NCBI GenBank assembly: GCA_964646345.1
Contig: CAZYDU010000001.1
Coordinates: 12,583 to 76,582, forward strand
DNA length: 64,000 bases
Direction of reading: 5' to 3'
Source of the DNA: an uncultured Lachnospiraceae bacterium
GTDB taxonomy: Bacteria > Bacillota > Clostridia > Christensenellales > UBA1242
Shown here piece by piece: positions 24,673 through 51,005 of this stretch. How positions within the stretch are numbered: position 1 is the first letter of the stretch; each line of letters begins with the position of its first letter. The notes under the pieces were generated by a model. It searched no databases. It was given only the letters and a program-made list of their open reading frames with translations, and was not told where the DNA came from. A program made the position numbers and the translations under genes.

Positions 24673-24806
24673 ATTCGGATACCTTTTTAAAGAGATCTCT
24701 CCACGCAGTCGCTTCGCTCCTTTGGTCGAGATGACAAAGTAGACCCAGTGTCATTTCGAGCAGAGTGAAACGAAGTCGAGAAATCCCCCATCTCAAAGAC
24801 GTTACA
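24673..24806. repeat. dispersed palindromic-module repeat, locus 1 (B module then A module)
   Basis: B: GAGATCTCTCCACGCAGTCGCTTCGCTCCTTTGGTCGAGATGACA. A: GTGTCATTTCGAGCAGAGTGAAACGAAGTCGAGAAATCCCCCATCTCAAAGACGTTACA. The same modules recur at 26915, 37898 and 50888. Confidence 0.85.
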
Positions 24807-24830: not shown

Positions 24831-24855
24831 TAAAAATCCGATATTTCTATCGGAC
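24831..24855 (-). terminator. rho-independent terminator after yajC
   Basis: Stem TCCGATA (24837-24843) / TATCGGA (24848-24854), with a T5 run on the minus strand. Confidence 0.6.
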
Positions 24856-24859
24856 TTAA

Positions 24860-25449: not shown

Positions 25450-26882
<1,433 letters not shown>

Positions 26883-26914
26883 AATCTTCTCCTTTTTGTA
26901 TATGATTATTAATA

Positions 26915-27106
26915 GTGTCATTTCGAGCGGAGCAAGGCGGAGTCGAGAAATCCCCCATCTCGAAGACGTAACACATTTCATACGGATAGTTCATGGGGCT
27001 CTCTCCACGCAGTCGCTTCGCTCATTTGGTCGAGATGACACAACACCCCAGTGCCATTTCGACTGGAGCGTTAGCGGAATGGAGAAATCCCCCATCTCGA
27101 AGATGC
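26915..27106. repeat. dispersed palindromic-module repeat, locus 2 (A - linker - inverted B - A')
   Basis: A is 26915-26972, linker CATTTCATACGGATAGTTCA, B runs to 27042, and a second A-like unit is 27051-27106. The ends GTGTCATTTCGAGC / GGTCGAGATGACAC are imperfect inverted repeats. Confidence 0.85.
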
Positions 27107-37595: not shown

Positions 37596-37803
37596 ATTAC
37601 TCCTATAAATTTTATTTCAAGTTTTCTTTTTACAAGAAAAAATGAGTGGTTTACGAAGAAATCCACTCACTATATATAATAAACCAAATTCATAGTGCGA
37701 GAAACTAAGTCTCGCCAAGACATCTGGGTTTATGCATTATATATTTGACCTACTCAAAATCTTTCATTTGGAAGGTGGAAAGTGTTCTTTCTCTTCAATA
37801 AAC
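37596..37803 (-). promoter_or_regulatory. infC operon leader with terminator-type attenuator (candidate L20 leader)
   Basis: About 200-nt untranslated leader. Hairpin GCGAGAC..GTCTCGC near 37698-37716. Attenuator GAGTGG (37644-37649) / CCACTC (37663-37668) followed by T6 on the minus strand just before the infC RBS. L20-mediated attenuation is known for this operon in Bacillus. Confidence 0.45.
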
Positions 37804-37809
37804 GAGCAT

Positions 37810-37838
37810 ATTTTATCACACCCGAGAATCTTTGTCAA
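37810..37838 (-). promoter_or_regulatory. sigma-A type promoter of the infC operon
   Basis: Minus strand: TTGACA (37838-37833), N17, TAAAAT (37815-37810). Confidence 0.5.
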
Positions 37839-37897
37839 CAGTTTTGATAAAGTTTTTTTATTGACTTTTACGCGAATACTACACCCAACTTTCTCAT

Positions 37898-38051
37898 TGT
37901 CATTTCGAGCGAAACGTAGTGTAGTCGAGAAATCCCCTTTCTCGGAGACGTTACACATTTTCATACGGATAGTTCAGGGAGATCTCTCCACGCAGTCACT
38001 TCGCTCCTTTGGTCGAGATGACAAGGCAAGACAAAACGGTCGAGATGGCAC
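37898..38051. repeat. dispersed palindromic-module repeat, locus 3 (A - linker - inverted B - partial B)
   Basis: TGTCATTTCGAGCGAAACGTAGTGTAGTCGAGAAATCCCC..CATACGGATAGTTCA..GATCTCTCCACGCAGTCACTTCGCTCCTTTGGTCGAGATGACA, plus GGTCGAGATGGCAC. Confidence 0.85.
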
Positions 38052-38134
38052 AAAAATAAGTGCTCTTGTCCCAATTCGAAAGACTTGGTATTGACTAGTT
38101 TTACTGCTACTTTTCAATGTCAATGTGTTTAAAC

Positions 38135-50887: not shown

Positions 50888-51005
50888 GTGTCATTTCAAC
50901 TGAAGTGTTAGCTGAATAAAGAAATTCCCTTGGTTTTTCCCCGTCATTTCGACTTTTTTCTTTTGTGTCATTTCAAGCAAAGCAAAGCGGAGTCGAGAAA
51001 TCCCC
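50888..51005. repeat. dispersed palindromic-module repeat, locus 4 (degenerate A, fragment, A)
   Basis: GTGTCATTTCAACTGAAG..GAAATTCCC, then CGTCATTTCGAC, then GTGTCATTTCAAGCAAAGCAAAGCGGAGTCGAGAAATCCCC. Confidence 0.8.

Follow-up and report, generated by a model that had tools for sequence, protein, structure and literature searches.

What kind of element are the short, imperfectly palindromic repeats that lie between the genes of this uncultured Lachnospiraceae bacterium? The sequence under study is a window of 64,000 nt (the whole stretch of DNA that was analysed, from contig CAZYDU010000001.1 of assembly GCA_964646345.1), taken from a 1.04-Mb genome (G000) of 31% GC in 12 contigs that is 94.8% complete. 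It holds nine repeat modules and two head fragments, spread over four intergenic loci. A sequence-only reading had regarded these repeats either as a non-autonomous mobile element, similar to miniature inverted-repeat transposable elements (MITEs) or repetitive extragenic palindromes (REPs), or as an RNA-level structural element, and had assigned them to no named family. Our results indicate that they are probably DNA-level hairpins of the TGTC-headed class of REPs, which accompany Ssn-type GIY-YIG nucleases of single-stranded DNA (ssDNA). The CGTC/TGTC-tagged REP superfamily of Di Nocera 2013 corresponds to the Ssn-related motifs (SRM; NTS in Neisseria) of Chenal 2025.

The modules share one scaffold, which exists in two forms. 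The T-type reads TGTC-ATTTC-GA-SY...R(T)S-GA-GAAAT-CCCC and the C-type TGTC-ATCTC-GA-CC...G(T)G-GA-GAGAT-CYCY, with size classes of 31, 39, 41, 42 and 47 nt and a minimal module of GTGTCATTTCGAGC-GAA-GTCGAGAAATCCCC. The 'A' and 'B' modules of the sequence-only reading are these two subtypes of a single hairpin module; 'B', which had been taken for a separate diverged copy, carries a compensated change in the stem (ATTTC/GAAAT to ATCTC/GAGAT). From the base upwards, the fold consists of a 5-bp stem, a G·A/A·G tandem, two base pairs with a bulged T, GNA/GNA, a mini-stem of 2 bp and a loop of 3-4 nt, and across modules the loops span 3-19 nt. The head TGTC remains unpaired, and the tail CCCC stands at the other end. 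Head, stem and tail are conserved, and the tips are variable. RNAalifold independently gave a structure identical to the fold derived by hand.

Covariation argues for this fold. Among 37 distinct 41/42-mers, with shuffled and slid alignments as controls, pairing cells made up 96.7% compared with 86.2% after shuffling, and 46 cells were changed on both sides, compared with 17.8 in the shuffled and 0-10 in the slid controls. Pair 13-31 is GC in 18 modules and CG in 15, pair 14-29 is CG in 19 and UA in 16, and the stem of the tip occurs as GC:GC, AC:GT or GT:AC. Covariation that supports the predicted hairpin was seen inside this genome, among congeners and in more than 15 phyla. The ~128-bp unit formed by two modules and a linker had also been described as one long hairpin. 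The 128 nt of T-linker-C may indeed fold as one (-22.9 kcal/mol, z = -3.2), but the covariation indicates that each module also pairs within itself. The hammerhead, the K-turn, attC, CRISPR and domain V of group II introns were considered as well and dropped, their defining motifs being absent from the sequence.

The family extends far beyond the window. With an nhmmer profile made from the window copies (cut-off E < 0.01) we found 102 modules at 44 loci, and a covariance model run in parallel gave 108, so that the genome holds about 100 copies where four loci had been seen. All 44 loci are intergenic, 15 of them between convergent, 25 between tandem and 4 between divergent genes; convergent and divergent spacers number 106 and 107 in the genome as a whole. 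The arrangement of the modules follows a strict rule. All 40 inverted neighbour pairs, 22 tail-to-tail and 18 head-to-head, join one T-type to one C-type module, and of the 17 direct (head-to-tail) pairs 15 are T-T. The linkers of tail-to-tail dimers are conserved and of two kinds, of 26-29 nt (...CTAGAAAGCGGAAATATTTTCAA...) and of 38-40 nt (CATCTCGAAGACGTAACACATTTTCAYACGGATAGTTCAT), the latter including the linker seen in the sequence-only reading, and head-to-head spacers measure 8-11 or 25 nt. Upstream of the T-type heads there is a pyrimidine tract from which G is almost absent; C-type heads have no such tract. Outside the window, at C5:44682-44995, a tail-to-tail T/C heterodimer and its head-to-head spacer occur in three near-identical tandem copies with a period of 109 nt. 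This triplicate is a local amplification like that of BIME-2 (bacterial interspersed mosaic elements). Seventeen of the 44 loci sit on a single 110-kb contig, C4. The GC skew of this contig is almost flat, and it carries one open frame of ~10,600 aa (C4:4842-36695, minus) with a weak GIY-YIG-like stretch.

In relatives, the scaffold is kept and the stems differ. The exact module pattern of this genome is absent from 40 relatives. A generalised pattern, for which reversed-pattern controls gave ~0, found modules in about 8 of 20 congeners and none in the other 12, with counts of 37 in the sister species G016, 19 in G006, 14 in G004, 5 in G013 and few elsewhere; G023, of another genus, has 5. The congener stems are complementary and species-specific on the same scaffold (TCC/GGA, TCT/AGA, GTT/AAC, ACT/AGT, CCT/AGG). 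The sites themselves differ too. The distance from queA to the next gene is 0-80 nt in congeners and 231 nt here; the spacer between yajC and the DUF3792 gene is module-free or short in the related metagenome contig L168, whose tgt has 92% amino-acid and 77% nucleotide identity; and the spacers of G016 orthologous to the repeat loci of C4 are short or module-free. Given these short or module-free spacers, the copies are lineage-specific gains. C4 is not syntenic with the module-rich region of G016, since it maps to a part of G016 that has no modules.

The same hairpin occurs far outside the Clostridia. A scan with GTCATNNNGAGCGAAG(N)CGANNNATC, using one genome per species, gave at least 146 matches, and those listed belong to more than 15 phyla and include Acidobacteriota, Bacteroidota, Nitrospirota, Planctomycetota, Verrucomicrobiota, Chloroflexota, Patescibacteria, Gemmatimonadota and Bacillota. 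The three N pairs are all Watson-Crick in 132 of the 146 matches listed (chance 1/64), with 11 different perfect stems, and single genomes contain from 53 to 413 strict matches against 0 in the reversed control. In a Bacteroidaceae metagenome-assembled genome (JAZNUE010000016.1, L029:3563-4217), seven modules GTCATGTTGAGCGAAGCGAAACATC in direct orientation form a regular array with an exact period of 105 nt. When all open reading frames (ORFs) at 120 module-bearing loci of other phyla were clustered, no recurrent neighbour family emerged, and the partner gene surfaced only through whole-genome searches for the GIY-YIG protein.

That partner is found in relatives. In the module-rich region of the sister species G016 lie two genes for a 97-aa GIY-YIG protein, both of them bordered by modules to the left and to the right. 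The homologues of this protein in G004 and G024, with 69% and 59% identity, are likewise flanked by modules, and GIY-YIG homologues with 44-62% identity also occur in each of three distant genomes in which this module subtype is abundant. More widely, single-domain homologues of ~95 aa and 65-75% identity number in the thousands across many phyla. A Latescibacterota homologue is flanked by modules of the TGTCATTCTGAGCGAAGCGAAGAATC type, which is the subtype found here. The homologue of an Acidobacteriota genome with more than 400 GA-core modules (44-50% identity; G043:C4:705875-706157, L250/L252) is flanked not by this subtype but by NTS-like hairpins that hardly differ from the Neisseria NTS consensus; split over two frames, this gene is probably frameshifted. 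A Nitrospirales chromosome (OZ251550.1; L248, L251) carries two paralogous small GIY-YIG genes with different flanks, one beside NTS-like TGTCATTCCCGC..GCGGGAATCC hairpins and the other beside TGTCATTCTGAGCGAAGCGAAGAATC (GAGCGAAGCGA-core) hairpins. These paralogues suggest paired specificities, with two enzyme-repeat pairs coexisting on one chromosome. In Neisseria, Chenal 2025 described the repeat NTS, CGTCATTCCCGCGMAVGCGGGAATCYRG, together with SsnA, a single-domain GIY-YIG nuclease of 94 aa that binds to the top strand in its folded form and cleaves ssDNA upstream of this site, without acting on double-stranded DNA, RNA or the reverse strand, and ssn genes are typically flanked by such repeats (Nat Commun 16:2388, PMC11893778).

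Each module of 31-47 nt folds on one strand, the one reading 5'-TGTCAT, into a stem of 5 bp that opens with A-T and T-A, continues with a tandem of sheared-type G·A/A·G and ends in two Watson-Crick pairs around a bulged T. GNA motifs and mini-hairpins similar to GCGAAGC build the variable tip, and the pyrimidine tract with the TGTC head on one side and the CCCC tail on the other provide the frame. By analogy with SsnA, the ~97-aa GIY-YIG protein of relatives would bind this folded top strand and cut ssDNA just upstream of the head. The modules are combined into BIME-like mosaics of one T-type and one inverted C-type module joined by conserved linkers. We infer that an Ssn-type enzyme recognised or spread the present copies; this genome would have lost its ssn-type gene or never kept it, leaving the ~100 copies as orphans of an earlier expansion.

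The modules show strand polarity. Taking local GC skew with an absolute value of at least 0.03 as a proxy for the replication strand, the top strand of the T-type lies on the C-rich (lagging) strand in a ratio of 51:5, and that of the C-type on the G-rich strand in a ratio of 19:2. Counted by locus, orientation follows the replication strand at 30 of 34 (30:4, p = 6e-6). Gene direction is discordant with the skew or regional majority at six loci, and at five of these the module follows the skew. The polarity of G016 leans the same way, weakly (25:13). The polarity may reflect single-strand exposure at the replication fork; the top strand of the cleavable type would be tolerated chiefly on the template of the leading strand, on which it would rarely be single-stranded. 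In the stretch C1:525000-645000 of G016 (L268-L273), modules and both ssn genes (at 557 kb, C1:557093-557383, and at 587 kb) lie within ~50 kb of a change of skew sign at ~565 kb, which is possibly a replication origin or terminus. In the Latescibacterota chromosome OZ242005.1 (G042), seven head-to-head heterodimers of an ACT-stem and a GCT-stem module are spread from 0.45 to 4.71 Mb. The four that lie up to 2.20 Mb point one way and the three from 2.35 Mb onwards the other, as a replichore-dependent polarity predicts; the GC skew sampled along this chromosome is too noisy to bear this out.

Several observations weigh against an assignment to Ssn-type repeats. The present genome has no small GIY-YIG gene, since PF01541 gave only an ORF of UvrC size (614 aa) and a weak match in a giant ORF, and the link to Ssn is therefore drawn from relatives. 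The 97-aa protein, a candidate member of cd10448, matched only Pfam GIY-YIG and, weakly, a UPF0213 structure. The published SRM string, HGTCWYN(0-2)YYVSBRHN(0-5)WNVSBRGN(0-2)RNCYNB, matches none of the 102 modules and nothing genome-wide, compared with ~0.55 in shuffles; its head and tail parts fit the modules, and its stem part fails at the G·A positions. The two non-Watson-Crick positions and the bulge would likewise fail the filter of the 2013 survey, which admitted no more than one stem mismatch. As regards the fold, the covariation counted within the genome overstates the number of independent events because the copies are paralogues; independent stem variants come from other species. Nearest-neighbour DNA energies of single modules are unremarkable compared with shuffles (z of ~0 to +1.4), and since they do not stand out, it is covariation that carries the fold. 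Polarity and gene orientation are confounded, and only the six discordant loci separate the two. Finally, no insertion polymorphism was found at strain level: a look-up of exact proteins gave only near-identical strains with identical repeats, and the metagenome scan gave only other species (at most 92% amino-acid identity), all without modules.

An overlooked gene offers little help here. A tblastn search with the G016 protein found neither a match nor a remnant in the 94.8% complete assembly, and a hidden ssn copy is not especially likely, because the contig ends fall outside modules and several of them overlap each other. Overlaps of ~55 nt join the end of C1 to the start of C8, the end of C2 to the start of C11 and the end of C7 to the start of C9; the starts of C6 and C12 overlap by ~55 nt in reverse, and C3 terminates in a (GCAA)n microsatellite. 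The assembly is nearly joinable by these overlaps. Modules but no ssn gene were detected in G006, G013 and G023 as well. PF01797, the family of RAYT transposases, has no match in this genome, and six control genomes were positive. With neither an ssn-type gene nor a RAYT, the modules here are orphans.

The copies in the window illustrate the arrangement. The arm motif GTCATTTCGAGC (at most two mismatches) has 11 matches against 3.0 expected, and GTCGAGAAATCCCC (at most three) has 9 against 1.7; in each case none of 100 dinucleotide-preserving shuffles reached the observed number. Every copy listed in the sequence-only reading was present, within 1-4 nt of its given position if not exactly there, and all four loci proved to be intergenic, as it had placed them. 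At locus 1, between yajC and a DUF3792 gene, a 47-nt C-type module, TGTCATCTCGACC...GTGGAGAGATCTC, on the minus strand (24691-24737; covariance-model match C1:37273-37319) stands head-to-head, across a 10-nt spacer, with a 41-nt T-type module on the plus strand (24748-24788) whose tail extension CATCTCAAAGACGTTACA runs to ~24806. Locus 2 lies between queA and a 102-aa ORF followed by tgt. Its left arm is a T-type module of 41 nt and of the GC/G-C subtype (26915-26955, plus), joined tail-to-tail by a conserved 39-nt linker, CATCTCGAAGACGTAACACATTTCATACGGATAGTTCAT (26956-26994), to a 47-nt C-type module (26995-27041, minus), which in turn is head-to-head, with a spacer of 9 nt, with a 42-nt T-type module of the CT/A-G subtype and tail CATCTCGAAGATG (27051-27092, plus). 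The 102-aa ORF (26574-26882, minus) lies between these repeats and tgt and is present in congeners; contig L168, which has the closest tgt from the metagenome scan, does not contain it and has a queA-tgt gap of 35 nt.

At locus 3, between thrS and infC, a second tail-to-tail heterodimer is made of a 41-nt T-type module (37897-37937, plus), a conserved linker of 40 nt (37938-37977) of the same class as at locus 2, and a 47-nt C-type module (37978-38024, minus); a C-type head fragment, GTGCCATCTCGACC, was read directly from the sequence at 38038-38051 (minus). The unit of A, linker and inverted B that the sequence-only reading had drawn at these two loci, with its linker CATACGGATAGTTCA, is real, a linker of this 38-40-nt class joining seven dimers genome-wide, and its ends are inverted repeats as described (12 nt, 92% complementary). 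Locus 4, between an M16 peptidase gene and htpG, has a degenerate T-type module of 42 nt (50888-50929, plus; 47 bits), a head-only fragment, GTCATTTCGACT, that adds to the copies previously listed (50943-50954, plus), and a T-type module of 41 nt (50965-51005, plus). Spurious ORFs overlap modules as had been noted, for example at 37732-38094 (plus) and 26574-26981 (minus).

RNA roles in 3' untranslated regions have been proposed for many REPs, and the modules could act there as terminators, mRNA stabilisers or processing sites. The loci are biased to the 3' ends of genes, as the contexts given above indicate, RNA often contains G·A tandems and GNA loops as well, and the tail-to-tail dimer folds well. 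The orientation of the modules does not fit, however. In tandem contexts the T-type is antisense to the upstream gene by 28:13, so that most transcripts would hold the complement, with G·A turned into C·U/U·C, and the skew rather than local gene direction is followed at five of the six discordant loci. Moreover, the modules end in CCCC and a conserved tail with no U/T run, and locus 1 has a separate terminator, a hairpin with a T run at 24834-24857. Rfam gave no family: a search of the window at gathering scores found only a tRNA, and an E-value search of eight loci found only a sub-threshold RF02901 in a Hymenobacter locus. The characterised partner enzyme is inactive on RNA (PMC11893778). 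The RNA-level alternative of the sequence-only reading is, in our view, unlikely. In the Hymenobacter glaciei locus (L085:3498-3721), a tail-to-tail dimer matches RF02901 (Aggregatibacter small RNA 41) on both strands with E = 5e-9, and a repeat of the present class may underlie that Rfam family.

The modules might instead be host-domesticated sites of DNA architecture, bound by a nucleoid protein or gyrase or used as replication-oriented signals, and selected independently of any nuclease. Conservation of head, stem and tail above variable tips, the strong polarity and the persistence of copies in genomes that lack ssn, this one and apparently G006, G013 and G023, would all be expected of such sites. 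The loci differ between species, though, and no essential conserved role is needed, given that 12 of 20 congeners have no modules. We regard domestication as very unlikely.

An origin as a MITE with terminal inverted repeats (TIRs), moved in trans by a DDE transposase with T-linker-C as the mobile unit, would account for the heads-out units of 97-128 bp with terminal repeats GTGTCATYTCGA and for the empty sites in related species. Such movement predicts traces that were not seen. By inspection, no target-site duplication was visible at the outer flanks of 21 tail-to-tail and 14 head-to-head dimers, single modules and direct arrays occur as often as dimers do, and the 120 loci of other phyla have no recurrent neighbour gene. 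Covariation within each arm is also unexpected for TIRs that a protein binds as a duplex, and this origin seems highly improbable. The broader notion of a non-autonomous, MITE/REP-like element holds good, the copies being dispersed, gene-less and intergenic, about 100 in number, with empty congener sites, a patchy spread across the genus and species-specific stems. Movement as a classical REP/BIME by a RAYT (TnpA-REP, Y1 HUH) transposase can hardly be entertained: the mosaic of two alternating module types, the conserved linkers, the tandem amplification of dimers at C5:44682-44995 and a strand polarity expected of single-strand transposition all recall it, but PF01797 is missing here while the controls are positive, no RAYT occurs in the searched assemblies of module-bearing congeners, the head is TGTC and not GTAG, and the module-flanked gene of relatives encodes a GIY-YIG protein and not a Y1 transposase.

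Hairpins of Ssn-type systems, the reading that we prefer, have consequences for annotation and biology. The modules produce spurious ORFs and break metagenome contigs, and should be masked as repeats. The Ssn-repeat system would extend to small-genome Clostridia, and the reach of its repeats is probably underestimated, because a subtype found in more than 15 phyla escapes the published SRM string. The heterodimer rule and the strand polarity, both simple and testable, are relevant to the spread of such gene-less repeats and to the action of the nuclease on the chromosome that encodes it. It is conceivable, if doubtful, that the polarity, by which the T-type top strand hardly ever falls on the lagging-strand template, and the strict pairing with a C-type module whose flanks differ are together the footprint of Ssn systems on their own chromosome, that cleavable hairpins survive where they are rarely single-stranded, and that orphan arrays still matter biologically. 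In that case, orphan arrays could mark the DNA of this bacterium as restrictable upon uptake by Ssn-bearing gut relatives, and would give a first genomic handle on the in vivo role and the spread of Ssn repeats outside Neisseria.

How, then, do the modules compare with known systems? The REP/BIME elements of E. coli reportedly go together with RAYT (TnpA-REP) proteins (Ton-Hoang 2012; Nunvar 2010). Like them, the modules are imperfect hairpins with an unpaired tetranucleotide tag, with two unit types that strictly alternate in orientation, conserved linkers and tandem amplification, and the arrangement of inverted T/C modules with conserved linkers matches that known for E. coli BIMEs. The tag is TGTC instead of GTAG, no Y1 transposase is present, and the gene associated in relatives is a GIY-YIG nuclease. 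With IS200/IS605 elements (IS608, ISDra2) the modules share imperfect strand-specific hairpins, an extrahelical T, conserved flanking nucleotides and an orientation linked to the replication strand; unlike those elements, they are far shorter, lack TnpA and TnpB and show no sign of excision or insertion chemistry.

The modules match the CGTC-tagged REPs closely. Di Nocera, De Gregorio & Rocco 2013 (BMC Genomics 14:522, PMC3733652) described these as having an unpaired CGTC/TGTC head, a stem of 8-9 bp that starts with complementary A and T, and a short CCA-like tail. Their dimers mostly face head-to-head, commonly join two different units and have conserved, structured spacers; they lie between ORFs that are unidirectional or convergent, no dedicated transposase goes with them, and their families CGTC-1 to -4 take in Neisseria dRS3 and Rickettsia RPE-4/-6 (PMC3733652). 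In the 37 aligned modules, each of T2, G3, T4 and C5 is invariant or conserved to at least 90%, and none of the four takes part in the stem, which opens with pair 6-38 (AU in 37 of 37) and pair 7-37 (UA in 36 of 37); the same start of the stem, A-T then T-A, holds in G016, G004, G006 and the cross-phylum matches listed. About nine stem positions, a short tail (CCCC here, CCCA in G016), head-to-head and tail-to-tail heterodimers, and intergenic, mainly tandem or convergent contexts complete the likeness, again in a class without a dedicated transposase. The modules depart from the 2013 survey in their loops (3-19 nt compared with 4-5 nt), in their Clostridia host, the survey having reported no Firmicutes, and in tail-to-tail pairs, which are as common here as head-to-head pairs (22 and 18) and were rare there.

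The Ssn-related motifs show the same kinship. The (C/T)GTC head followed by AT, the hairpin core closed by AT, the tail of C and pyrimidine, the directional flanks, the tens to hundreds of clustering intergenic copies and, in relatives though not in this genome, the ~95-aa single-domain GIY-YIG gene between repeats are all common to both. The stem, on the other hand, is not a continuous GC-rich palindrome, having the tandem G·A/A·G, the bulged T and tips of up to 19 nt, and the host is a 1-Mb Clostridia genome without ssn, for which cleavage can be proposed by analogy. Literature searches by sequence strings returned nothing relevant, a search for follow-up work on Ssn returned the original study only, and the searched text of PMC3733652 and PMC11893778 contains no mention of a replication-strand bias. 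The mismatch with the SRM string, the T/C-only inverted dimers and the replication-strand orientation appear to be undescribed details. Taken together, the features shared with the CGTC/TGTC-tagged REPs (PMC3733652) and the module-flanked Ssn-type GIY-YIG gene of the sister species (PMC11893778) give a named class to repeats that had been thought to have none; the modules are a structural subtype lying outside the published search definitions, and not a new kind of element.

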